Below are positions 1-35,116 of a stretch of DNA of 35,116 nt, piece by piece. A program made the translations under genes and the position numbers. Source of the DNA: a virus (Duplodnaviria > Heunggongvirae > Uroviricota > Caudoviricetes); the IMG/VR virus record IMGVR_UViG_2718218135_000003; one strand, written 5' to 3'. Within the stretch, counting starts at the first letter, position 1. Every line of letters starts with the position of its first letter. The notes under the pieces are model-generated. The model was not told where the DNA came from. It was given only the letters and a program-made list of their open reading frames with translations, and did no database searches.

Positions 1-900
1 TTAACGCAATAATGGACAATCTGGTGGTAATCGACAACGCAACGCCGCCGGAAGTATTTCAATATGAAAGTTTTGTCCGCTCAACGGTTCGCCATCAAGA
101 TTAAAAGTGATTTCGTGTGGGGCTTGTATATCAAACCACGACGAAGCGCCTTCGATAATATTCGGGTTATCTTCGTCAGATTTTAAGGTTGATACGAGAG
201 CCGGAAGAATTTCATCGCCGGTAAAAATGCGCAGTTGCAGCAAGCCATCGTTAATTAACGCGTTCGGACACAATTGCTGACCGCCACCGGCCTGACGCCC
301 GTTACCAATACCAATGACCAGGGCGTCACCTTGCCAGTGAAAGTTTTCACCGCGGATTTCACAACGGTCCGGTTGCAGAGTATCCATGCGCATTAAGCCA
401 TGAATGATGTAAGAGACGCCACCCAGCGCGGCTTTTAATTTTTCCGGCGTTTCTGTGGTAATACGCGTCCCAAATCCGCCTGTCGCCATATTAATAAAAC
501 AGGTTTGTTTGTTGACCTGCGCCATATCTATCGCAATGGCGTTACCGGCAATTGCCAGTTTCAGCGCCTTATCCAGTGCCTCAGGAATCCCTACACTGGT
601 GGCAAAATCATTGGCGGTTCCTAATGGCAAAATTCCCAGCGCGGGTATGTCATCCCCCTCACACTGAATCAACGCCGTAGAAACTTCATTAATGGTGCCA
701 TCGCCACCACCGGCAATCACCGTTGCGACGCCCAACTTCCGGGCCTCCTCTACATATCGTGCGGCATCGCCTTTCTCCCAGGTGACCCGCACATGGATCG
801 TCATTCCTTCCTCACGCAACAGCATAATTGCTTCGCGCAAGGGTAGATTGTCAGTACTTTTGCCATTAAGAATCAGTAAGCTGGCGGGAAATTCTGCCAT
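1..900 (-). CDS. yegS: Lipid kinase YegS (diacylglycerol-kinase-like catalytic domain); host gene
   Basis: 299-aa ORF spanning the start of the window to an ATG at 900; GGDG-type kinase motif ([13 protein letters not shown]) and overall match to recalled E. coli YegS; length equals YegS. Confidence 0.85.
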
Positions 901-1314
901 GATCGTATGTGCCTTTATGATTGGTCTGTAGATAGTGTAGAGCAGAAAACAAAAGGTGGAGTCAGAACAGGATGAAAGTCGGAGGATAAAAAGTCAGTTC
1001 AAGTATGGAGGATTCAGTGGTTACCACCAGGAGCTTGCAATGGGGACAGCGAATACTAACGGCTGCCACCGATAAATTTCAAAAAAGAGCATATGCCTAA
1101 TATTCAACCAAACAGTGGCATCTTAAATATACTATTCCAAATATATTAAAGCCCCCATGGAGTTACCCTGAAGGGCCTCAATGTCCGTAATTCCTACTTA
1201 TGTAGGAAATGTTGTACAGAACATTTATTATAATCCTATTCAATTATAATAATCATGCCATTATTATATTTAAACACTAGAGAGTGTCGTTGGTATTTAA
1301 TGGGGGAAGGTGAG

Positions 1315-1632
1315 ATGAAAAAGATAGCTGCTATATCATTAATTAGTATTTTTATTATGTCTGGTTGTGCTGTGCATAATGATGAGACAAGTATCGGTAA
1401 ATTTGGTCTTGCATATAAAAGTAATATTCAGCGTAAACTCGATAACCAATACTACACCGAAGCCGAAGCTTCTTTAGCCAGGGGCAGAATATCTGGTGCA
1501 GAAAATATAGTAAAAAATGATGCAGCCCATTTCTGTGTTACTCAGGGCAAAAAAATGCAGATAGTTGACCTGAAGACAGAAGGTGCAGGATTACATGGCG
1601 TCGCTCGTCTGACATTCAAATGTGGAGAGTGA
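1315..1632 (+). CDS. yegR: Small lipoprotein YegR (host gene); start taken at internal ATG
   Basis: 105 aa from MKKIAAISLISIFIMSGC: signal peptide plus lipobox (MSGC); upstream part of the 125-aa ORF has no such features. Sits next to yegS as in E. coli. Confidence 0.6.
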   Translation: MKKIAAISLISIFIMSGCAVHNDETSIGKFGLAYKSNIQRKLDNQYYTEAEASLARGRISGAENIVKNDAAHFCVTQGKKMQIVDLKTEGAGLHGVARLTFKCGE

Positions 1633-4688: not shown

Positions 4689-5008
4689 TGTCCTGTTCTC
4701 ATTCAGTTGTATTACTGAATAACGCCTTAAAAATCGCCGTTATGAAAAATGGCGATTTGTCTCTTATTCAACTTTGTCTTGATAAAGAAAAACGCGACAT
4801 CACTGAATCTGTTATCGCGATTTATCAGAATGAATTAAACCTCCTGTCTGATGTGGTCAATTTACTTGTTAAACGCGCTGTATTCCACAAGCAAATTTCC
4901 TCAGTGGATGAACTGACAAAATTAACGACAGAACTTGCCAGTTATTGCGCTGATGTATCCAGGAAACTTAACGATAAAAGGGGTGATGCTGCCAACTTAC
5001 TGATTTAG
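4685..5008 (+). CDS. Early-operon hypothetical protein (P2 orf81 position); 3' end altered by IS1
   Basis: ORF runs into IS1 at 4982; last 8 codons (GDAANLLI) are IS1 sequence. Splicing out IS1 and one TSD copy gives ...NDKRS-stop. Confidence 0.5.
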
Positions 5009-5036
5009 TGTATGATGGTGTTTTTGAGGTGCTCCT

Positions 5037-5312
5037 GTGGCTTCTGTTTCTATCAGCTGTCCCTCCTGTTCAGCTACTGACGGGGTGGTGCGTAACGGCA
5101 AAAGCACTGCCGGACATCAGCGCTATCTCTGCTCTCACTGCCGTAAAACATGGCAACTGCAGTTCACTTACACCGCTTCTCAACCCGGTACGCACCAGAA
5201 AATCATTGATATGGCCATGAATGGCGTTGGATGCCGGGCAACCGCCCGCATTATGGGCGTTGGCCTCAACACGATTTTACGTCACTTAAAAAACTCAGGC
5301 CACAGTCGGTAA
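5037..5312 (+). CDS. insA: IS1 InsA (transposition regulator; N-terminal part of InsAB' transposase)
   Basis: 91 aa [37 protein letters not shown]... matches recalled IS1 InsA; A6C slippery tract (A_AAA_AAC, 5288-5294) near its end. Confidence 0.9.
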
Positions 5313-5734
5313 CCTCGCGCATACAGCCGGGCAGTGATGTGATTGTCTGCGCTGAAATGGACGAACAGTGGGGATACGTCGGGGCTAAATCGCACCAGCG
5401 CTGGCTGTTTTACGCGTATGACAGGCTCCGGAAGACGGTTGTTGCGCACGTATTCGGTGAACGCACTATGGCGACACTGGAGCGTCTTCTGAGCCTGCTG
5501 TCGGCCTTTGAGGTCGTGGTATGGATGACGGATGGCTGGCCGCTGTATGAATCCCGCCTGAAGGGAAAGCTGCACGTAATCAGCAAGCGATATACGCAGC
5601 GAATTGAGCGGCATAACCTGAATCTGAGGCAGCACCTGGCACGGCTGGGACGGAAGTCGCTGTCGTTCTCAAAATCGGTGGAGCTGCATGACAAAGTCAT
5701 CGGGCATTATCTGAACATAAAACACTATCAATAA
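5231..5734 (+). CDS. insB: IS1 InsB reading frame (expressed as InsAB' by -1 frameshift)
   Basis: 167-aa frame matching recalled IS1 InsB, overlapping insA in the -1 frame. Confidence 0.85.
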
Positions 5735-5765
5735 GTTGGAGTCATTACCATAAAAGGAGCTGATA

Positions 5766-8977: not shown

Positions 8978-9021
8978 GCTTAACGAAGTCATGTTGAGTT
9001 AATAACATTTTTTCGTTAAGC
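8978..9021. other. Long hairpin overlapping the RT stop codon (10-bp perfect stem, 24-nt loop with nested 5-bp stem)
   Basis: GCTTAACGAA (8978-8987) and TTCGTTAAGC (9012-9021) are exact reverse complements; inner ATGTT/AACAT pair at 8991-8995/9004-9008. Possible bidirectional terminator or structured RNA. Confidence 0.4.
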
Positions 9022-10559
9022 GCTGTGTTCCTTGTCGAATAAGTTCACTTCTTCTGGTGTAATATCATTATCCATTTCTTCGAATGCATCTAAATCCACA
9101 ATTTTTGTTTTTTTCAAAATTGATAGTATTTTCTGTTTGTTTTTACTTTTGGCTGAACCCGGAATCCACTCTACATCCCACAGGCCATCAATGGTAAATG
9201 TTTTTTTTCCCTTGAGTTCATCATTTATGCGTTGACATAGGGCTGTTTTGTAATCGCCTTCCCATTGTGTGTGTATCTTCCCTTGAACTCGTTGAAACCA
9301 AATATCTAACATTTCAGTATTTGGTTGTTTACCTAGTTTACAATGAAGTTGTTGTAACTTGCCAAATTTGAGTTCATCGTCGTCATAAAGGAAGGTCAAG
9401 AGTTTTGCGAAAATAGCCATTCCCACTGGGTAGGTGGTTGGGTTTTTAGCCATGATGCTTGAAATAATTCCAAGCATTGCATCTAGTTGATGCCCACTAT
9501 TTGTGATCTTTTTCTTCCTAAATAATTTTCGCAAGAAATCATTTAAATATCTAACTGTAATTTTGGAGTTTTGATGTTTTAAAGAAAATAAATATATTGC
9601 ATACAACATTTTCTGTAGGGAGTTGAACGACTTTTCTATAATATATTCTTTTTTTGCTGATTTAAGGGAGTGAAGAATGATGTCGTCATGTAGTTCTGTT
9701 TTTCTTGAGTTTAAATCAAGCCCAAACTCACCTAAGACCTCAACCAAACACTTTGAGATTTTGTCCAAATCATCTTTACTGCTTGAAAATATTCGATAAT
9801 CATCTCTGTAGCGAACTACTTTGTAATCCGTTATTTTTTGCTCTTCGGTTTTTTTCTTAGCTGTAAATCAATTTCGCCTAAAATTAATTCGGCAAATGTA
9901 TCCATCAACGTACTACCCAATGGTATTCCGTTTGTCTGATTACTCATCATCATCTGGATATGAGTGTCAATCAATCGTCCTGGGTTATTGTTATTTTCTT
10001 TCTTTTTGGCCTCTTCTTTTGAGATGAATACCCATTCAAAGCTATGAGTGTAAATAGAAGGGTAGAAGTTTGAAATATCTGTGCTGAACATGAACTCATA
10101 CTCAAGAGCCAATGAAAGACTTTTTTGTTCAAAATCTTCCCACCAGTTTAAAACAGATGCAGCTACGTTTGAGGTGTTCTTTTTGCTCACTGGGATACTT
10201 GAGCATAAAAAAAGATCATTAGACTCAAACTCTCTAAATTTATTCCTTATAGCATTCCAGTTGGAAGAGGATGTAATAAGTTTACAAAAATACACGTAGT
10301 ATAGAGGATTAATTAGTGTTATTCGTCGCCAGCTATATAAGCCATCTTTGCTGACTAAAACCTCGTAATTTATATTCTTCCCCATCAATGACTTGGAGTC
10401 AGGTTGGAAGTTGATTTTACCTTCATCTATCGCGGAGTTGATTTCTTCAAGCAAGGAAGAAAAATCGACATAACTGGGTAGCTCCAGAGTAGTGTATGAA
10501 TCATGCTGCAGAAAATACTTAAGCGCTCTACCAGTAGTTAATTCATAAATCTTTTTCAT
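9016..10559 (-). CDS. Abi-type reverse transcriptase (AbiK/Abi-P2-like), interrupted by a -1 frame change at an A7 tract (9849-9855); fused product about 514 aa
   Basis: N-terminal frame carries RT-like motifs (FSTDISNFYPSIYTHS; GIPLGSTLMDTFAELIL); the frame opening 5 codons upstream of its stop carries VVRYRDDYRIF (YxDD). AT-rich relative to flanks. Start at ATG 10559 (MKKIYELT) is an estimate. Confidence 0.7.
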
Positions 10560-10765
10560 AATTAGTGATTTCTTCTTAAGTTGCGCACAAATAACTACCT
10601 GTTTTCTATCATGATAACGATGCGAATGCGAGCAATTCAGGAAGTGCATTACTCTGCATCGAAGCGCACGCAAGTCAGAGAACAATAACTGCCTGGCGAC
10701 ATCAGGACTGGCGCGCTAGTTGAGTGGTCATGCAACTGCATTAAAACCGCCCCATGAAGCGGGCG

Positions 10766-19690: not shown

Positions 19691-20141
19691 GTTTAAGCGT
19701 TTTGAAGACCGGCTGACCGGACTGATTGAGTCGCTGTCACCGTCAGGGCGTCGGCGACTGGCGGTAGATATTGCGAAGAAGCTGCGCCAGCGCCAGCAGC
19801 AGCGAATTAAATTACAAAAAGCCCCGGATGGTACGCCGTATGTACCGAGAAAAAACCAACCAGTACGAAATAAGAAAGGCCGGATAAAGCGGGAAATGTT
19901 TGTGAAATTACGCACTAACCGGTTTATGAAAGCAACAGGTAGCGAGAGTGCGGCGGTGGTGGCGTTTGCCAGCGGAGTACAACGAATTGCGCGAGTACAT
20001 CAATTAGGGCTTAGGGATAAGCCGGGGCGTAATAGTGCTGTGGTGGAATATCCTGTTCGTGAGTTATTTGGTTTTGACAAGGAATCTATACAATTGATAG
20101 AAAGGGAGTTATTAGTGATTCTATCGAAAGATGTTATATGA
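19683..20141 (+). CDS. S: Tail completion protein S (3' portion compositionally atypical)
   Basis: 152 aa; N-terminal part matches recalled P2 S (MNEFKRFEDRLTGLIESLSPSGRRR); sequence from about 19850 is AT-richer, like the downstream cargo gene. Confidence 0.7.
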   Translation: MNEFKRFEDRLTGLIESLSPSGRRRLAVDIAKKLRQRQQQRIKLQKAPDGTPYVPRKNQPVRNKKGRIKREMFVKLRTNRFMKATGSESAAVVAFASGVQRIARVHQLGLRDKPGRNSAVVEYPVRELFGFDKESIQLIERELLVILSKDVI

Positions 20142-20893
20142 GACGGGTGTTTGTGGATAAAAAGTTTTCCATTTTGAGAAAAAGAGTAAAGCATTCTCAA
20201 AAGAAAGTTATGGATTGTATTATTGCTGACCATAATGCTGATATATGTGTGTTATGCGGGAGTTCTGACGATATTACTCGTGAGCACATTATTCCTCAGT
20301 GGGCCTTTGAGTCAAATGCTGAAAAATCTTTAATTAATAAAAAGAATAATCAGTCAACTCATTACATTAAAGCCACTGTACCAGCATGCAGAGTGTGCAA
20401 TTCTGATTTGCTGGGAGTGTTTGAGTATAACCTGAAGAAATTTCTTACGGAAAAGAGAGGGGAGGAGTTAACAGATTATGAGTATGATTGCATCATATGG
20501 TGGTTGCAATACATGGGTTTTAAGTTGCAATTAATGGATTTGCGGAACCGCTTTCTCAGGTATAAAGGTGGTGATTATATCCCGTTTCTTGCAAACTTCC
20601 CGGTTGCAATGTTTTGGGGGAATGTCGATACGACGCCGGGGGATGTCTTCAGGATTATACGAAAATCGCGACGCAATCTGATGTCGAAATGGAAGGATAA
20701 AAAACATAATTCTTTGATGGTTTTTGAAACATCAAACAAGAGTTTTCATTTCTTTCATAAGGTTGATGAATTTATTTTTATTGAAATTCCTCAGGTTAAG
20801 AAGGCGTTTTTCTTCTTTTTTAATAAAGAATTTGACAGCCATGATTTAGCTCATGAGGAGTGTATGAAGATTATAGAGAAGTGCTACAACTAA
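20138..20893 (+). CDS. Cargo gene between S and V: putative HNH-family nuclease (CxxC...EHIIP...CxxCN), unknown function
   Basis: 251 aa, strongly AT-rich and Lys/Phe/Asn-rich, unlike flanking tail genes; ICVLCGSSDDITREHIIPQWAFE ... PACRVCNSDL resembles an HNH zinc-finger core; ATG overlaps the S stop (ATGA); no counterpart in P2. Confidence 0.6.
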   Translation: MRRVFVDKKFSILRKRVKHSQKKVMDCIIADHNADICVLCGSSDDITREHIIPQWAFESNAEKSLINKKNNQSTHYIKATVPACRVCNSDLLGVFEYNLKKFLTEKRGEELTDYEYDCIIWWLQYMGFKLQLMDLRNRFLRYKGGDYIPFLANFPVAMFWGNVDTTPGDVFRIIRKSRRNLMSKWKDKKHNSLMVFETSNKSFHFFHKVDEFIFIEIPQVKKAFFFFFNKEFDSHDLAHEECMKIIEKCYN

Positions 20894-22863: not shown

Positions 22864-23467
22864 TTCGCGACTGCTGCCGACCGGCTCATCACCGCTTGAA
22901 GTCGCTGCCGCAAAAGCCTGTGCGGAAATTGAAAAAACGCCGGTCAGTATTCGTGAGCTGTGGAACCCGGACACCTGCCCGGCAAATCTGCTGCCGTGGC
23001 TGGCGTGGTCATTTTCGGTTGACCGCTGGGATGATAAGTGGCCGGAAGCGACAAAACGCGCTGTTATCCGCGATGCGTATTTCATTCACTGCCATAAGGG
23101 CACTATAGGCGCAATCCGGCGTGTGGTGGAGCCGCTCGGCTATCTGATTGAGGTGAGGGAGTGGTGGCAGCTCAACGAGGAGCCGGGGACGTTCCGCATC
23201 GTTGTTGGCGTGCTTGAGCAGGGTATTACCGAGGAAATGTATCAGGAGCTGGAGCGCCTCGTTGCTGATGCAAAACCGGCAAGCCGCCATCTGACGGGAC
23301 TGGCTATCAGTTTAAGTACAACCGGCAACATTTTTGCCGGTGCGGGATGCTATCACGGTGACGCCCTGACGGTTTATCCCTACACCCCGGAGGCCATTAT
23401 TGTCGGAGGGGATTATTTCCCGGCCTCGGCCATTCATTTAATTGATAACCTGAGAGTAAACGCATGA
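22856..23467 (+). CDS. I: Baseplate protein I
   Basis: 203 aa in the P2 I position between J and H. Confidence 0.75.
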
Positions 23468-24642
23468 CAGTGAAATACTACGCCATTCTGACTAATCAGG
23501 GCGCAGCACGGCTGGCTAACGCGACGATGCTCGGCAGTAAGCTGAATCTGACGCAAATGGCCGTTGGTGATGCGAATGGTGTCTTGCCGACACCAGACCC
23601 GGCACAGACAAAACTGATTAACCAGAAACGCATCGCGCCGCTGAATCTTCTGAGTGTTGACCCGAACAACCAGAGCCAGATTATTGCGGAGCAAATCATC
23701 CCTGAGAACGAGGGCGGATTCTGGATCCGTGAGATTGGGCTTTATGATGATGAAGGCGTACTCATTGCGGTGGCGAACTGCCCGGAAACGTACAAACCGC
23801 AGTTGCAGGAAGGCAGTGGTCGTACCCAGACTATCCGCATGATTCTGGTTGTCACGAATACCGAAGCTATTACGCTGAAAATCGACCCGTCGGTGGTACT
23901 GGCGACCCGTAAATACGTGGATGATGAAGTCCTGGAATTAAGGCTGTATGTGGATGACCAGATGAGAAACCACATTGCCGCACAGGATCCTCATACCCAG
24001 TATGCACAGAAATATAATCCGACATTTACCGGAGAACCAAAAGCGCCGACGCCTGCCGCAGGGAATAACACCACGCGGATTGCGACCACTGAGTTTGTTC
24101 AGGCCGCTATTACCGCTCTGATTAACGGTGCGCCAGCCACGCTGGACACACTGAAAGAAATTGCCGCAGCCATTAACAATGACCCGAAATTCAGTACCAC
24201 CATTAACAATGCGCTGTCAGGTAAGCAGCCACTGGATGAGACGCTGACTCATTTGAGTGGAAAGGATGTTGCCGGTCTTCTCGCATACCTTGGTTTGGGA
24301 GAAGCGGCTAAAAGGAATGTAGGGACAGGGGCGAATCAGATACCTGATATGGGTAGCTTCACGCTTTCTGTTTCAGGTACTGGATATCAAAAATTACCAT
24401 CAGGTTTTATTCTTCAGTGGGGCTCAATCGGCGCACCAGGCATTGCACAGGATGTAGTAACCCATTTTCCGATTGCATTTCCAAACAGATGTCTGCGTGT
24501 TTTGGTCTCACAAGACTACACACCAGATAGCGGGGCTGTTGGTTATATTGCCTGCGCAGGTTTTAGTGCCGACCCGGTTAAATTTATATCCAGAGCCAGT
24601 ACTCCTGGCCTCGGCGCTTCATTTTTAGCGTTAGGCTGTTAA
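23464..24642 (+). CDS. H: Tail fibre protein H (constant N-terminal part plus currently expressed variable C-terminal segment)
   Basis: 392 aa; N-terminus resembles the conserved tail-fibre N-termini of P2 H / Mu S / P1 S; a crossover site lies in-frame at 24278-24303. Confidence 0.8.
24278..24303. repeat. 26-bp recombination (crossover) site, left boundary of invertible tail-fibre segment
   Basis: TTCTCGCATACCTTGGTTTGGGAGAA; its right 14 bp are the exact inverted copy of the partner at 26146-26171; imperfect palindrome resembling hix/gix/cix sites. Confidence 0.7.
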
Positions 24643-24663
24643 TTTAGCTATATGGAGTGAAAA

Positions 24664-25104
24664 ATGAATTACATATATTCCGCGACTACAAACTCTTTCT
24701 ATCCGCTGGAGATGAAAGAGGATTACACTCAAGCTGACTCATGGCCAGATGATGCTGTTGAAGTTGATGAGCAAGCGTATATTGAGTTTTCCGGATTACC
24801 GCCGAAAGGAAAAATCCGTATCGCTGGAGAAAATGGTTTTCCTGCATGGTCCGAAATTCCACCACCAACACATGAGGAACAAATTGCTGCAGCCGAACTG
24901 GAGAAGCAGCAATTGATTAATCAGGCCAACGATTATATGAACAGTAAACAATGGCCTGGTAAAGCGGCTATTGGTCGTCTGAAAGGTGACGAACTGGCGC
25001 AATATAATTTGTGGCTGGATTACCTGGACGCACTGGAACTGGTCGATACTTCCGGTGCGCCAGATATTGAATGGCCTACGCCTCCGGCAGTTCAGGCCAG
25101 ATGA
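24664..25104 (+). CDS. G: Tail fibre assembly protein G (chaperone for the expressed fibre variant)
   Basis: 146 aa directly after H; P2 G position; conserved C-terminal region of tail-fibre assembly proteins. Confidence 0.75.
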   Translation: MNYIYSATTNSFYPLEMKEDYTQADSWPDDAVEVDEQAYIEFSGLPPKGKIRIAGENGFPAWSEIPPPTHEEQIAAAELEKQQLINQANDYMNSKQWPGKAAIGRLKGDELAQYNLWLDYLDALELVDTSGAPDIEWPTPPAVQAR

Positions 25105-25678
25105 CATCCGGCGCGGTGCTCGTATCTGTTGCCGTCACCGCGTCAATGTAATCCAGCACAGCGTTAAGTCGGGTGGTTTCTGCCTGCGTCAGCTTCCGCC
25201 CGGCCTGCAATTTCAGTTGAATCAGACTGATGGAAGCCATTGCAGTATCAATCAGTGACTGACGCAGTGCTTCTGCCGCGTCTACTGCGGCGCTATGCTG
25301 TGCCTCAGTATCGGTCACCCATTTCTTACCATCCCATTTATCGAATGGCGTTAACGGGGCGATAGTGGTTGTATTTTCAGGATAATCACCCGGAGCTGTG
25401 ATTTCTTTGGCGTCTCCCGTTTCGGTGTTATAGACGATTTCACCGCGATGGTCTGGCACATATTCCCATGAGTTTAAATCCATCGAACGGCAGATAGCAT
25501 AACCCGCCTTATGTATACCAGGTTCATCCAGACAGGAATATGCAGGGATACCGACACCAATGGCAAGATATTCATTTGAAGTAGAAATATATTCCCGAGT
25601 TTTACCATCATAGTTATAGACGGTAATATTCCCCGCCTTCGTGGCAATAAGCTCGCTATTTAATACGGCGTTATCCAT
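25076..25678 (-). CDS. Alternative tail fibre assembly protein (G') in the silent orientation
   Basis: 200 aa on the opposite strand inside the invertible segment; tail-fibre-assembly-like C-terminus; start overlaps the stop of the alternative fibre segment. Confidence 0.65.
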   Translation of the reverse strand: MDNAVLNSELIATKAGNITVYNYDGKTREYISTSNEYLAIGVGIPAYSCLDEPGIHKAGYAICRSMDLNSWEYVPDHRGEIVYNTETGDAKEITAPGDYPENTTTIAPLTPFDKWDGKKWVTDTEAQHSAAVDAAEALRQSLIDTAMASISLIQLKLQAGRKLTQAETTRLNAVLDYIDAVTATDTSTAPDVIWPELPEA

Positions 25679-26160
25679 TATGCAGCCCTCACGATATAGT
25701 TAAATGCAATATTTCGTGGACGGGTTTCACTCCCGCCAGTATTACCGATACTCCCTCGTGAATGAAGTGTCGGTGATGGGATCAGACTCCCTCCTGTATT
25801 TGCGGCATCAAGTCCCCGTCCTTGTGTGTATGTCTTTTTGAAAATCGTAGCCAGTTCCCATTCATCTTTTGTGTCGTAACCATCATTGGCAACAACAATA
25901 TGGCGGTGTTTTTCCAGCATCCCTGTCTGAATGCTCAATAAAACACGTCCTGCATCAATACCGCGCCCGTCATCCCAGCCACGAATAAACTCACCACGTA
26001 AATCAGGCAATTTATTTGTCGGATAAGCCTTTGCCAGTTCCGGGTATTCTTCAGCAGAAAAAGCCGCACCGTTGCATTTCAGCCAGCCTGTTGGCGGTGT
26101 GGCTGAAGGCCATGGAACAGGCACACCAACAGGTAATGCAGAGCCTTCTCCCAAACCAAC
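25678..26160 (-). CDS. Alternative tail-fibre C-terminal segment (Hv'), no own start; fused in-frame to H only after inversion
   Basis: Minus-strand frame reads ...LGLGE-GSALPVGVPVPWPSATPPTGWLKCNGAAFSAEEYPELAKAYP..., a motif typical of Mu S / P1 S / lambda Stf receptor-binding ends; the shared LGLGE codons lie in the crossover site. Confidence 0.6.
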   Translation of the reverse strand, partial: VGLGEGSALPVGVPVPWPSATPPTGWLKCNGAAFSAEEYPELAKAYPTNKLPDLRGEFIRGWDDGRGIDAGRVLLSIQTGMLEKHRHIVVANDGYDTKDEWELATIFKKTYTQGRGLDAANTGGSLIPSPTLHSRGSIGNTGGSETRPRNIAFNYIVRAA

Positions 26161-26171
26161 GTTTATGAAAA
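26146..26171. repeat. 26-bp recombination (crossover) site, right boundary of invertible segment
   Basis: TTCTCCCAAACCAACGTTTATGAAAA, closely similar to the hixL sequence as I recall it; inverted partner of 24278-24303. Confidence 0.7.
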
Positions 26172-26226
26172 TGCAGAGATAACGGGCAACTGGCATCATC
26201 TCCGGTTTTTATTCAGGGGGATGCTC

Positions 26227-26820
26227 ATGCTTATTGGCTATGTACGCGTGTCAACAAATGACCAGAACACGGAATTGCAGCGTAACGCGCTGGAGTGCGC
26301 AGGATGCGAGCGGATTTTTGAGGATAAAATCAGCGGCACGAAGTCCGACCGACCGGGACTGAAAAAACTGCTCAGAACATTATCAGCAGGTGACACTCTG
26401 GTAGTCTGGAAGCTGGACCGGCTGGGGCGTAGTATGCGGCATCTGGTCATTCTGGTTGAGGAGCTGCGCGAACGCGGCGTTAATTTTCGCAGCCTGACAG
26501 ATGCTATTGATACCAGCACGCCGATGGGGCGTTTTTTCTTTCATGTGATGGGTGCCCTGGCTGAAATGGAGCGAGAACTCATTGTCGAGCGGACACGCGC
26601 TGGACTGGAAGTGGCCAGAGCCAAAGGGCGTATTGGTGGCAGACGTCCGAAGCTCACCGGGAGTGAGTGGGAGCAGGCCGGGCGGTTGCTGGCTGCGGGG
26701 GAATCTCGTCAACGTGTGGCGCTGATTTTTGATATTGGCCTGTCCACGCTCTATAAAAAATTCCCCTCATCAGCGACAAAGAATAAATTGTGTCATCCCT
26801 TAGCCAACCGGGACAAATAG
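26227..26820 (+). CDS. pin: Site-specific DNA invertase (serine recombinase, Pin/Gin/Cin/Hin family)
   Basis: MLIGYVRVSTNDQNTELQRNALECAGCERIFEDKISGT...VVWKLDRLGRSM... matches recalled Pin/Gin; start at 26227 is 6 nt after a GGGGG ribosome-binding site. Confidence 0.85.
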   Translation: MLIGYVRVSTNDQNTELQRNALECAGCERIFEDKISGTKSDRPGLKKLLRTLSAGDTLVVWKLDRLGRSMRHLVILVEELRERGVNFRSLTDAIDTSTPMGRFFFHVMGALAEMERELIVERTRAGLEVARAKGRIGGRRPKLTGSEWEQAGRLLAAGESRQRVALIFDIGLSTLYKKFPSSATKNKLCHPLANRDK

Positions 26821-26879
26821 CCTGACATCTCCGGCACAACTGAAAATACCACTCACCCATTAACCACGGAGTTAAACGG

Positions 26880-28070
26880 ATGAGTGACTATCATCACGGC
26901 GTGCAGGTGCTGGAGATTAACGACGGCACCCGCGTCATTTCCACCGTATCCACTGCCATTGTCGGCATGGTCTGCACGGCCAGCGATGCGGATGCGGAAA
27001 CCTTCCCCCTCAATAAACCTGTACTGATTACCAATGTGCAGAGCGCAATTGCAAAGGCCGGTAAAAAAGGCACGCTGGCAGCATCGTTGCAGGCCATCGC
27101 TGACCAGTCAAAACCGGTCACCGTTGTCGTGCGTGTGGAAGACGGCACCGGCGACGACGAAGAAACGAAACTCGCGCAGACCGTTTCCAATATCATCGGC
27201 ACCACCGACGAAAACGGTCAGTACACCGGACTGAAAGCCCTGCTGGCGGCGGAGTCGGTTACCGGTGTTAAACCGCGTATTCTTGGTGTGCCGGGACTGG
27301 ACACCAAAGAGGTGGCGGTTGCACTGGCATCCGTCTGTCAGAAGCTGCGCGCTTTCGGGTATATCAGCGCATGGGGCTGTAAAACCATTTCCGAGGTGAA
27401 AGCCTACCGCCAGAATTTCAGCCAGCGTGAGCTGATGGTCATCTGGCCGGATTTCCTCGCATGGGATACGGTCACCAGTACCACCGCCACCGCGTATGCC
27501 ACCGCCCGTGCGCTGGGTCTGCGTGCCAAAATCGACCAGGAGCAGGGCTGGCATAAAACGCTGTCCAACGTCGGGGTGAACGGTGTTACCGGCATCAGCG
27601 CATCTGTATTCTGGGATTTGCAGGAGTCCGGCACCGATGCTGACCTGCTTAACGAGTCAGGCGTCACAACGCTGATTCGCCGTGACGGTTTCCGCTTCTG
27701 GGGTAACCGTACCTGCTCTGATGACCCGCTGTTCCTCTTTGAAAACTACACCCGCACCGCGCAGGTGCTGGCCGACACGATGGCTGAGGCGCATATGTGG
27801 GCGGTGGACAAGCCTATCACCGCAACGCTGATTCGCGACATCGTTGACGGCATCAATGCCAAATTCCGTGAGCTGAAAACAAACGGCTATATCGTGGATG
27901 CGACCTGCTGGTTCAGCGAAGAATCCAACGATGCGGAAACCCTTAAGGCCGGAAAACTGTATATCGACTACGACTATACCCCGGTGCCTCCTCTTGAAAA
28001 CCTGACCCTGCGCCAGCGTATTACCGATAAATACCTGGCAAATCTGGTCACCTCGGTTAACAGCAATTAA
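26880..28070 (+). CDS. FI: Tail sheath protein FI
   Basis: 396 aa, P2 FI length and position. Confidence 0.85.
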   Translation: MSDYHHGVQVLEINDGTRVISTVSTAIVGMVCTASDADAETFPLNKPVLITNVQSAIAKAGKKGTLAASLQAIADQSKPVTVVVRVEDGTGDDEETKLAQTVSNIIGTTDENGQYTGLKALLAAESVTGVKPRILGVPGLDTKEVAVALASVCQKLRAFGYISAWGCKTISEVKAYRQNFSQRELMVIWPDFLAWDTVTSTTATAYATARALGLRAKIDQEQGWHKTLSNVGVNGVTGISASVFWDLQESGTDADLLNESGVTTLIRRDGFRFWGNRTCSDDPLFLFENYTRTAQVLADTMAEAHMWAVDKPITATLIRDIVDGINAKFRELKTNGYIVDATCWFSEESNDAETLKAGKLYIDYDYTPVPPLENLTLRQRITDKYLANLVTSVNSN

Positions 28071-33583: not shown

Positions 33584-33610
33584 AAAAAATAAGCCCGTGT
33601 AAGGGAGATT
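33584..33610. repeat. attR: attR core: second copy of the 27-bp repeat AAAAAATAAGCCCGTGTAAGGGAGATT
   Basis: Exact duplicate of 1791-1817, downstream of ogr. Confidence 0.85.
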
Positions 33611-33754
33611 ACACAGGCTAAGGAGGTGGTTCCTGGTACAGCTAGCATTTTATGGGTTATGTTTTTCAGCGAAACGGATGATAACCTTAATAAATACAGC
33701 TGTATGTGATCGGTTTCTAAGAATTTTCCATCCGGGAAAAATAATCGAAATTAA

Positions 33755-35116
33755 TCACTTACCGTGGGGATTACGCGTGGTTTCCCCGGAGAAATTACGC
33801 ATCAGCAGCGCGTAATTGAGCTCAAGATCCTGCGGGACCGGTAGCCACACAGTATAACCATCGCCTGGTGCTATCGGCATAGCTTCGCCTTTGGCGTTTT
33901 CCATGTGCTCAAGGGTAAAATTAATGTTGCCTTGCGGCGTCATCAGCTCAAGGCTGTCGCCAACGGAGAATTTATTTTTCACCGCTACCGCCGCGAGGTC
34001 CCCCTTGCGCTCACCGGTAAACTCACCAACAAACTGCTGGCGGTCAGAAACTGAATAACCGTATTCGTAGTTCTGATAATCGTCGTGAGTATGACGACGC
34101 AGGAAACCTTCAGTATAGCCACGATGCGCCAGACCTTCCAGAGTTTCCAGCAGGCTGGTATCGAACGGTTTTCCCGCAGCGGCGTCATCGATAGCTTTGC
34201 GGTAAACCTGTGCGGTGCGTGCACAATAGTAGAAAGATTTGGTACGACCTTCGATTTTCAGCGAATGCACGCCCATTTTGGTCAGGCGTTCTACATGGGC
34301 GATGGCGCGCAGATCTTTCGAGTTCATGATGTAAGTGCCGTGCTCATCTTCAAACGCGGTCATATACTCGCCCGGACGCTGGGCCTCTTCGATCATAAAC
34401 ACTTTGTCGGTTGGTGCGCCGATACCCAGCGTCGGCTCAACATTTTGCACCGGAATCGGCTCGTACTTGTGTACGATGTTGCCAACATCATCTTCTTTCC
34501 CTTCCTGGACGTTGTACTCCCAGCGGCAGGCGTTGGTGCAGGTGCCCTGGTTCGGGTCGCGCTTGTTGATATAGCCAGAGAGCAGGCAGCGACCGGAGTA
34601 GGCCATGCACAGCGCGCCGTGAACGAAGATCTCGATCTCCATATCCGGCACCTGATTGCGGATCTCTTCAATCTCTTCCAGCGACAGCTCGCGAGAGAGG
34701 ATCACGCGGGTCAGGCCCATTTGCTGCCAGAATTTCACCGTCGCCCAGTTCACGGCGTTAGCCTGCACCGAAAGGTGGATCGGCATTTCAGGGAAGTGCT
34801 CACGCACCAGCATAATCAGCCCTGGATCGGACATAATCAGCGCATCCGGCCCCATTTCCACCACCGGTTTCAGGTCACGGATAAAGGTTTTCAGCTTGGC
34901 GTTGTGCGGTGCAATGTTGACCACGACATAAAACTTTTTCCCCAGCGCGTGGGCTTCATTGATGCCGAGCTGAAGATTTTCGTGGTTGAATTCGTTGTTG
35001 CGCACACGCAGGGAATAACGCGGCTGGCCCGCATAAACAGCATCTGCGCCATAAGCGAAAGCGTAACGCATATTTTTCAGCGTTCCCGCCGGGGAAAGGA
35101 GTTCCGGTTTAAACAT
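33755..35116 (-). CDS. yegQ: Peptidase-U32-family protein YegQ (RlhA-like); host gene
   Basis: 453 aa, complete (ATG at the window end); recalled identity to E. coli YegQ; Cys-rich central region typical of the U32 family. Confidence 0.8.
   Translation of the reverse strand: MFKPELLSPAGTLKNMRYAFAYGADAVYAGQPRYSLRVRNNEFNHENLQLGINEAHALGKKFYVVVNIAPHNAKLKTFIRDLKPVVEMGPDALIMSDPGLIMLVREHFPEMPIHLSVQANAVNWATVKFWQQMGLTRVILSRELSLEEIEEIRNQVPDMEIEIFVHGALCMAYSGRCLLSGYINKRDPNQGTCTNACRWEYNVQEGKEDDVGNIVHKYEPIPVQNVEPTLGIGAPTDKVFMIEEAQRPGEYMTAFEDEHGTYIMNSKDLRAIAHVERLTKMGVHSLKIEGRTKSFYYCARTAQVYRKAIDDAAAGKPFDTSLLETLEGLAHRGYTEGFLRRHTHDDYQNYEYGYSVSDRQQFVGEFTGERKGDLAAVAVKNKFSVGDSLELMTPQGNINFTLEHMENAKGEAMPIAPGDGYTVWLPVPQDLELNYALLMRNFSGETTRNPHGK

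Follow-up and report, generated by a model that had tools for sequence, protein, structure and literature searches.

A known type of tail-fibre inversion switch in a P2-like prophage of Escherichia coli

Introduction

The invertible G segment of phage Mu and the C segment of P1/P7 share one architecture, in which the constant part of a tail-fibre gene is followed by a recombination site and a tip with its chaperone, and then, facing them, by a second chaperone and tip, the second site and the gene of the invertase. Their sites are 26 bp long with a 2-bp centre, and crossover takes place at conserved LGL(Q/G)E codons of the fibre gene. A related P segment, with stfE, tfaE and the invertase PinE, is carried by e14, a defective lambdoid remnant of E. 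coli K-12. In a P2-like remnant of EPEC E2348/69, the locus 2977580-2979467 (NC_011601.1) is phase-variable: sequencing of clonal cultures detected both orientations, about 93% of them forward, and the repeat ends in GGGAGAAG (Goldberg 2014, PMC4272514). Another P2-like prophage of EPEC contains a shufflon. P2-like prophages commonly have this arrangement, and published sequencing has already detected inversion at loci of this kind. Phage P2 itself (NC_001895) has at the equivalent place a single H of 669 aa, one G, a terminator and fun(Z), and is without a second site, a silent module or an invertase.

Here we describe a cassette of this kind in a stretch of 35,116 nucleotides, referred to as the window. 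From its sequence and from comparison with related genomes, we conclude that the tail-fibre region of the P2-like prophage in this window very probably holds a functional two-state inversion switch of the Hin/Gin/Cin/Pin type.

Results

The prophage is an E. coli P2-like element (Peduoviridae) that shares 99.7% identity with the annotated ECE313 prophage across 29 kb. The genes of the latter run in the order int, cox, A, Q, P, O, N, M, L, lysis genes, R, S, V, W, J, I, H, G, FI, FII, E, T, U, D, ogr, and Pfam searches of the window found the GPA replication protein and a P2-type integrase. The set of P2-type structural genes is complete, and the fibre gene H is part of its late V operon, which depends on Ogr. 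DNA homology to P2 extends up to position 23292 in gene I (88%) and resumes at 26800, from where it continues through the pF promoter into FI (98%); in between, the N-terminal half of P2 H retains about 42% amino acid identity to H of the window. An IS1 element is inserted in the early operon (4982-5749), just upstream of a TraR-like gene and of replication gene A, and the loss of one nucleotide has split the gene for the AbiP2 reverse transcriptase. The IS1 junction was searched for in the collection of complete genomes and found in none of them. Because of the IS1 in the early operon it is uncertain that viable phage is made, and the prophage may not produce phage at all. An Rfam search of the whole window returned a single match, CyaR, which lies outside the prophage.

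Two 26-bp imperfect palindromes, inverted relative to each other, were found at 24278-24303 and 26146-26171, where the initial annotation had placed them. The left one, site L (pixL-like), lies inside H and encodes its residues Y-L-G-L-G-E. It reads TTCTCGCATACCTTGGTTTGGGAGAA, that is TTCTCGCATACC TT GGTTTGGGAGAA. The right one, site R (pixR-like), reads TTCTCCCAAACCAACGTTTATGAAAA, that is TTCTCCCAAACC AA CGTTTATGAAAA, and ends 55 bp before the start of the invertase gene. Around each 2-bp centre, the imperfect 12-bp half-sites are TTCTCGCATACC, TTCTCCCAAACC (twice) and TTTTCATAAACG, and the sites are self-complementary at 20 of 26 (L) and 16 of 26 (R) positions. The inverted core common to both sites is exact, as initially described, and spans 15 bp (24290-24304 and 26145-26159) instead of the 14 bp given before. 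This core reads TTGGTTTGGGAGAA; the 35 kb contain just two exact copies of it, one per strand, and with up to two mismatches 0.24 chance matches would be expected in a window of this size. When the 26-bp consensus TTCTCNNAAACCNNGGTTTNNGAGAA was searched with up to three mismatches, sites L and R alone matched (0.00 expected). The central dinucleotides, TT at 24290-24291 in site L and AA at 26158-26159 in site R, are complementary, as is required for inversion. Since no third site was found in the 35 kb, even at three mismatches, a multi-site shufflon was ruled out and the arrangement is that of a simple two-state switch. A search for tandem repeats in 23000-27000 found none.

Measured from central dinucleotide to central dinucleotide, the invertible segment covers 24290-26159 (1870 bp) and contains two convergent modules, each with a fibre tip and a chaperone. 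H (23464-24642, plus strand, 392 aa) starts outside the segment. Its constant part (23464-24289, plus strand) covers codons 1-275 and the first base of the next codon (276), and its aa 1-150 match the N-terminal domain Phage_tail_fib of Pfam (E 1e-62). The tip read in the window orientation, Hv (24304-24642, plus strand, H aa 281-392), matches Pfam Gp53-like_C over aa 310-392 (E 2e-14) and, among solved structures, weakly matches R-type pyocin fibre tips and 4MTM (E ~1e-3). It is followed by its chaperone gene tfa (24664-25104, plus strand, 146 aa; Pfam Caudo_TAP E 2e-37; phrog_188, tail fiber assembly). The silent module lies on the minus strand. Its open reading frame as called (25678-26199) extends beyond the segment, and the part inside, which can be joined to H, is the alternative tip Hv' (25678-26144). 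Hv' matches Pfam Collar (E 1e-15) and the tip of T4 gp37 in structure 2XGF (E 4e-17), and also T4 gp12. The TfaE-like chaperone of this module, tfa' (25076-25678, minus strand, 200 aa), is again a Caudo_TAP protein (E 3e-32) with a homologue that RefSeq names tfaE; tfa and tfa' are convergent and their 3' ends overlap by 29 bp.

When 24290-26159 was flipped in silico, the constant part ran on into an uninterrupted H' of 435 aa, joined in frame through L276-G-L-G-E280, so that H (392 aa) and H' have residues 1-280 in common. Both the junction through LGLGE and the presence of a separate chaperone for each tip, here two Caudo_TAP genes, had been predicted by the initial annotation. It had also proposed aligning both fibre ends to known receptor-binding domains. 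Domain matches were obtained for both, and no receptor is named by the structure matches of Hv (pyocin tips) or Hv' (collar region of T4 gp37/gp12). As the domain families of the two tips, Gp53-like_C and Collar, are unrelated, the tips likely recognize different receptors. P2 H, Mu S/S' and Mu U/U' were considered as relatives of the variable parts and rejected: the only match, that of tfa to Mu U', is weak (30%, E 5e-6).

Next to site R lies a gene (26227-26820, plus strand, 197 aa) for a small serine DNA invertase that belongs to the Din group (Hin/Gin/Cin/Pin). The listed open reading frame begins at 26221 (26221-26820, 199 aa), and the likely true start is the ATG at 26227, which is favoured by a Shine-Dalgarno sequence, AGGGGGA, at 26214-26220; RefSeq uses the same start. 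The protein contains a Resolvase domain (E 3e-52, aa 5-137 of the 199-aa frame) and a C-terminal HTH_7 domain (E 2e-12), aligns over 1-182 with the Mu Gin structures 3UJ3/4M6F (E 6e-94) and is 86.7% identical over 181 aa to e14 PinE, which bears out its first assignment as a Pin/Gin-type invertase. Identity to Mu Gin is 147/197 (75%) and to P7 Cin 143/197 (73%). In the Gin alignment the catalytic residues R7, S9, D64, R65 and R68 are all kept, within the contexts MLIGYVRVS9T and W-K-L-D64-R65-L-G-R68. Ser9, the active-site residue singled out at the start as the one whose mutation would speak against a switch, is therefore intact. Residues H106 and M114 are wild type, which, in the light of published work on Gin and Hin mutants, suggests that the enzyme would depend on Fis. 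The C-terminal tail is 13 residues longer than that of PinE and runs into P2 backbone sequence.

Inside the invertase gene, the stretch 26245-26312 (plus strand) is homologous to a recombinational enhancer, corresponding to nt 19-86 of cin, the enhancer in the phage P7 record. Two matches to the degenerate Fis consensus KNNYRNNWNNYRNNM were found in it, at 26249-26263 (TGTCAACAAATGACC) and 26297-26311 (GCGCAGGATGCGAGC), and their predicted centres, gene nt 30 and 78, are separated by 48 bp. Mu gin, P7 cin and the window all have matches at gene nt 23-37 and 71-85, and the distance from site R to the first of them is 97.5 bp, as against 96.5 bp in Mu. Synonymous-codon identity in pairwise comparisons of the window, Mu and P7 showed no consistent excess at gene nt 19-87 over the rest of the gene. 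Since the Fis consensus is very degenerate and synonymous codons are not conserved beyond the rest, it is positional homology that marks this stretch as a candidate enhancer. A promoter and terminator scan of 24200-26950 gave nothing above shuffled expectation, and a simple scan of this region found no convincing sigma-70 promoter for the invertase gene.

Among the known systems, the P segment of e14 resembles the cassette in its gene order and in the position of the invertase gene, and PinE is the closest invertase. The right-hand site of e14 is the same 26-mer as site R, the left-hand site CTCTCGAAAACCTTGGTTTGGGAGAA differs from site L at three positions, and the core TTGGTTTGGGAGAAG is the same. 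The likeness to e14 P noted initially is thus borne out by an identical site R and the same order of genes. The silent module is shared in part: the tfaE region has 88% DNA identity to tfa' and stfE has 84% to the 5' (proximal) part of Hv', whereas DNA similarity to stfE is absent from the distal collar tip (25729-25926). In the other module, the Gp53-like tip and most of the 146-aa chaperone gene have no DNA match in e14, and only the last ~180 nt of the chaperone gene do. The two also differ in their surroundings, e14 being a lambdoid remnant whereas the cassette of the window is surrounded by a full set of P2-type structural genes.

The same cassette is present in the EPEC E2348/69 remnant, with DNA identities of 94% over window positions 24287-25728 and 92% over 25927-26159. 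Its right-hand site is one base off site R, its invertase is 80.8% identical to that of the window, and the invertase gene is followed by the P2 sheath gene FI. The EPEC prophage is truncated, with an integrase fragment abutting the left site where the window has the constant part of H, and in its reference sequence the segment has the orientation opposite to that of the window.

The layout matches Mu G and P1 C, as the initial annotation had held: Mu S-U-U'-Sv'-gin corresponds in order to H-tfa-tfa'-Hv'-invertase, gixR aligns with site R in register, and site length, 2-bp centre and crossover codons are those of Mu and P1/P7. In contrast, the centre is TC/GA in Mu and TT/AA here, the S/S' tips are unrelated or distantly related to those of the window, and the backbones of Mu and P1 differ from the P2-type backbone. 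The further statement that P2 has no such switch and carries Z/fun at this place stands, yet a solitary relic of a gix-like site, TTATCGAATATCTCGGTTTACAGGAA, is found in P2 H at the equivalent codons (EYLGLQE). Because of this relic, P2 is not wholly foreign to the inversion system.

The window itself shows one orientation, and the evidence for inversion is comparative, drawn from its relatives. GPEC1209 and GPEC1210, sister isolates from chicken, have the same constant part of H in both orientation states and show no difference over 9417 bp once 24290-26159 is flipped. Among complete E. coli genomes with matches at 80% coverage or more, 80 are in the window orientation and 91 are flipped. Both states thus occur in near-identical prophages, with breakpoints that fall, by sequence comparison, exactly at the sites. 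This agrees with the initial proposal that inversion swaps the end of H together with its chaperone.

Discussion

From these observations a mechanism can be proposed in which invertase dimers would bind both 26-bp sites, and an enhancer occupied by Fis, within the first ~90 bp of the invertase gene, would draw the sites together on supercoiled DNA to form a synaptic complex. Ser9 would then cut both sites at the central TT/AA, the subunits would rotate by 180 degrees and the ends would be rejoined with the 1870 bp turned. In the window orientation, the late V-operon transcript would encode H with the Gp53-like tip, followed by the 146-aa chaperone. Once the segment is inverted, the unchanged constant part of 275 residues would continue via LGLGE into the collar-domain tip of H', followed by the 200-aa TfaE-like chaperone. 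A lysogen population would be mixed, and induction would release particles of one of two receptor specificities, giving a bimodal host range. The dependence on Fis and the enhancer, the cleavage chemistry and the consequence for host range are the parts of this scheme that we infer.

It is very unlikely that the switch is frozen or decaying, with inversion stopped or irrelevant in a defective prophage. The IS1 insertion and the split AbiP2 gene are signs of decay and would fit such a state, as would the failure to find an invertase promoter, but all five open reading frames of the switch and both sites are intact, and every catalytic residue is present. In addition, inversion requires the invertase, the sites and host Fis alone, so that a viable phage is unnecessary; the EPEC cassette inverts in a truncated remnant, and e14 is defective as well. 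Still less is to be said for the view that differences in orientation arose by homologous recombination, horizontal replacement or assembly artefacts and not by site-specific inversion, which we regard as extremely improbable. Tail-fibre modules are often exchanged among P2-like phages, and many matches span parts of the region. However, the shared inverted identity of 15 bp is too short for efficient RecA recombination, and GPEC1209 and GPEC1210 agree at each of 9417 positions once the segment is flipped with its ends precisely at the sites. Assemblers must pick one state from a mixed population, but that choice itself implies a population that inverts, and at the homologous EPEC locus both orientations were sequenced from clonal cultures (Goldberg 2014, PMC4272514).

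The switch might also work and yet have been selected in the lysogen for host defence, with an StfE-like tip that masks receptors against other phages. In e14, inversion of the P segment creates StfE2, which blocks adsorption of T2 (Kirigo et al. 2025), and the silent module described here is related to e14 stfE/tfaE, with 84-88% DNA identity over parts. Against this role, H belongs to the late V operon of a complete structural gene set under Ogr control, and the DNA similarity to stfE does not extend to the distal end of the collar tip. The late V operon of P2 is not expressed in a repressed lysogen. Fibre switching, moreover, fully explains the layout, and we consider a defensive role highly unlikely. 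There is a slim chance that a prophage crippled by IS1 may keep the switch for its host, the flipped StfE-like tip masking outer-membrane receptors against T2-like phages, and that other Din invertases might drive the switch in trans. If so, the cassette at the P2 Z/fun hotspot would be a phase-variable defence element and not a host-range device.

The tail-fibre inversion switch is thus real and intact, yet an already-known device that has been shown by experiment in near-identical prophage cassettes. It carries little weight as a discovery and is a clean, intact case of textbook invertase-driven switching of a receptor-binding protein; in P2-like prophages such switching has been reported, sequenced in EPEC and routinely annotated. 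Annotation nevertheless splits the fibre gene according to its state, into 'phage tail protein' and 'gp53-like domain-containing protein', which leads to false gene gain and loss in pangenome and prophage-typing tools. An assembly captures one orientation, arbitrarily, out of a mixed population. For host-range engineering with such prophages, or with tailocins derived from them, each element offers two receptor-binding modules.

Recombination sites and fibre modules of the invertible segment

The tail-fibre region had been proposed in the initial annotation to be an invertible cassette bounded by two 26-bp imperfect palindromes. Both were found at the coordinates given there and in inverted orientation: site L (TTCTCGCATACCTTGGTTTGGGAGAA) at 24278–24303 within the tail-fibre gene H, and site R (TTCTCCCAAACCAACGTTTATGAAAA) at 26146–26171, the end of which lies 55 bp upstream of the invertase start. 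Site L is self-complementary at 20 of 26 positions and site R at 16 of 26. The exact inverted core that they share is 15 bp long (24290–24304 and 26145–26159); the 14-mer originally reported is present in exactly two copies, one on each strand of the window. When the window was searched with the 26-bp consensus, allowing up to three mismatches, only sites L and R were recovered and no third site was found. As 0.00 matches were expected in shuffled sequences, a chance repeat is ruled out. The central dinucleotides, TT in site L and AA in site R, are mutually complementary, and complementary centres are needed if ends cut with a 2-bp stagger are to be rejoined in the inverted configuration.

H (23464–24642, plus strand, 392 aa) combines a P2-type Phage_tail_fib N-terminal domain with a Gp53-like_C tip, and is followed on the same strand by the Caudo_TAP chaperone gene tfa (24664–25104, 146 aa). 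On the minus strand lie a silent tip ORF with a Collar domain (25678–26199, 173 aa) and a second Caudo_TAP chaperone gene, tfa' (25076–25678, 200 aa). In-silico reversal of the 1870-bp segment 24290–26159 connected H codons 1–275 through L-G-L-G-E to the collar tip with the frame unchanged, yielding a 435-aa fusion (H') with tfa' immediately next. Thus, the silent tip does join H in frame through the LGLGE codons and brings its own chaperone, as had been suggested. Alignment of the fibre ends to known domains gave matches for both, from which no receptor could be named. For the active tip, the matches were Gp53-like_C and, at a weak score (E about 1e-3), the fibre tips of R-type pyocins. The silent tip carries a collar domain as in T4 gp37 and gp12 (E 4e-17), and its proximal part, together with tfa', is similar to stfE/tfaE of e14, a cryptic K-12 prophage. 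The domain families of the two tips are unrelated, which makes different receptors likely.

Invertase and putative recombinational enhancer

The invertase gene (26227–26820, plus strand) encodes 197 aa with Resolvase and HTH_7 domains. Its start codon, ATG at 26227, lies 6 nt past a Shine-Dalgarno sequence (AGGGGGA) and is also the start used in RefSeq. A full-length alignment of the protein to the Mu Gin crystal-structure sequences 3UJ3 and 4M6F (E 6e-94) shows conservation of R7, D64, R65, R68 and the active-site serine S9, together with wild-type H106 and M114. The proposed Pin/Gin type is therefore confirmed, with an unmutated catalytic serine. Identity amounts to 147/197 residues with Gin, 143/197 with P7 Cin, 86.7% with e14 PinE (181 residues) and 80.8% with the counterpart in a P2-like remnant of the enteropathogenic strain EPEC E2348/69. 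Judged by its sequence, the enzyme belongs with Pin.

The right-hand site of e14 is the same 26-mer as site R, and there are three differences between the left-hand e14 site and site L. Mu gixR (TTCCTGTAAACCGAGGTTTTGGATAA) is in register with site R, at an equal distance to the invertase start, and the gene order is that of Mu S, U, U', Sv', gin. In the P7 record, the Cin enhancer is annotated at cin nt 19–86. Matches to a degenerate Fis consensus occur at gene nt 23–37 and 71–85 in the window (26249–26263 and 26297–26311, centres 48 bp apart), in Mu gin and in P7 cin, and the first lies 97.5 bp from the centre of site R, compared with 96.5 bp in Mu. The search for Fis sites in the 5' part of the gene thus gave candidate matches at corresponding positions; the consensus is loose, and synonymous positions of the enhancer stretch showed no extra conservation over the rest of the invertase gene. 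The recombinational enhancer is a putative one, placed by positional homology. Following the established biochemistry of Hin and Gin, this enhancer would be bound by Fis, the serine would cleave at the central dinucleotide, and subunit rotation would follow.

Natural inversion in related prophages

The window orientation was found at a coverage of at least 80% in 80 complete E. coli genomes, and the in-silico flipped construct in 91. The two sets are distinct because an inverted copy cannot attain that coverage on one strand. Inversion is clearest in GPEC1209 and GPEC1210, two chicken isolates that belong to one project and carry the prophage at a nearly equal chromosomal position. As deposited, the two 9417-bp regions show 1426 differences, all of which disappear (0/9417) when exactly 24290–26159 (window coordinates) is flipped.

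Phase variation by inversion has been detected in two P2-like prophages of EPEC E2348/69 (Goldberg et al., 2014; PMC4272514). One locus in their Table S1, NC_011601.1 2977580–2979467, was about 93% forward, and its repeat ends in GGGAGAAG. This locus contains the same cassette (94% DNA identity to window 24287–25728 and 92% to 25927–26159), followed by an invertase and then the sheath gene. Inversion at these sites is therefore already documented, in strains other than that of the window. The EPEC cassette (about 2977580–2979510) persists in a truncated P2-like remnant, in which the left crossover site adjoins an integrase fragment and not the constant part of H. Both orientations were detected all the same (Goldberg et al., 2014). 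A complete fibre is impossible in either state.

Comparison with P2 and condition of the prophage

In reference P2, this region comprises H (669 aa), G, a terminator, a minus-strand fun(Z) gene, the pF promoter and FI; it contains neither an invertase nor a second module. DNA homology between the window and P2 ends at 23292 inside gene I and restarts at 26800 inside the pF activator-binding site, so the replaced block takes in H, G and the Z/fun position. Both the placement of the cassette at Z/fun and the statement that P2 has fun(Z) here and no such switch are thus upheld. The invertase C-terminal tail is 13 residues longer than that of PinE, and the last codons (26783–26820) overlap the sequence homologous to the activator (Ogr) site of P2 pF. 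Since P2 backbone homology begins at 26800, the tail reaches into the F-operon late-promoter region, and part of it is encoded by sequence of the P2 backbone. P2 H itself contains a lone gix-like 26-mer, TTATCGAATATCTCGGTTTACAGGAA (NC_001895 13857–13882), which differs from Mu gixL at three positions and lacks a partner. Its position is that of the EYLGLQE codons, the motif of the crossover in Mu and in the window prophage. It has the look of a relic, either of an invertible ancestry or of a tip acquired from a Mu/P1-type cassette. The Z/fun hotspot of P2-like phages "often" holds a DNA invertase with adjacent genes inverted (Egorov et al., 2024, preprint), and the same arrangement is annotated in deposited phage genomes such as pro483, S164 and "P2" of O157:H43 T22.

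The prophage is flanked by yegS (DAGK_cat/YegS_C; 1–900, minus strand) on one side and by the CyaR sRNA (33587–33672, minus strand; Rfam 100.7 bits) and trhP/yegQ (33755–35116, minus strand) on the other, a locus at which K-12 presumably retains only a P2 stump (ogrK, yegZ). A 125-aa ORF (1255–1632, plus strand) had no family match. At the P2 orf30 position, flanked by the tail-completion gene and baseplate gene V, a 251-aa ORF (20138–20893, plus strand) had no Pfam or PADLOC match and matched, over its full length, only phrog_10503, a PHROG of unknown function. This ORF may represent additional cargo.

Two lesions set this copy apart from the prophage of ECE313, which is otherwise 99.7% identical. 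A 768-bp IS1 (4982–5749; InsA and DDE_Tnp_IS1 ORFs), absent from ECE313, has inserted into the early operon just ahead of a TraR-like gene and replication gene A, with a DUF5405 gene on its other side. The 8-bp target duplication ATAAAAGG (4974–4981 and 5750–5757) flanks the element, and its junction had no match among the complete E. coli genomes in our collection. IS1 insertions are usually polar, as this one probably is, so the prophage may be defective and unable to replicate. The old/tin hotspot, flanked by gene A and the portal gene, contains an AbiP2-type reverse transcriptase gene (9016–10685, minus strand). This gene is split into two ORFs (PADLOC AbiP2, E 3e-91 and 3e-50) near 9849–9856, where one T of a T8 run is lost relative to the intact 514-aa ECE313 gene; this could be a true frameshift or a homopolymer sequencing error. 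Neither lesion is a bar to inversion, which goes on in defective elements (for example, e14 and the EPEC remnant). Both lesions do weaken the claim of a bimodal host range for this prophage.

Implications of the fibre switch

The analysis demonstrates both sites, the reading frames, an intact invertase and, in near-identical elements, natural inversion at these positions. We consider it very probable that the locus operates as a Pin-type two-state fibre switch. Inversion would alter host range if the analogy with Mu, P1 and carotovoricin applies. The feature is an ordinary member of a long-recognized and experimentally established class, and it is common in E. coli. RefSeq labels vary with orientation, both for H ("phage tail protein" or "phage tail-collar fiber domain-containing protein") and for the silent tip ("phage tail protein" or "gp53-like domain-containing protein"). 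Such orientation-dependent annotation of the switch locus would yield spurious gene presence and absence in pangenome analyses.
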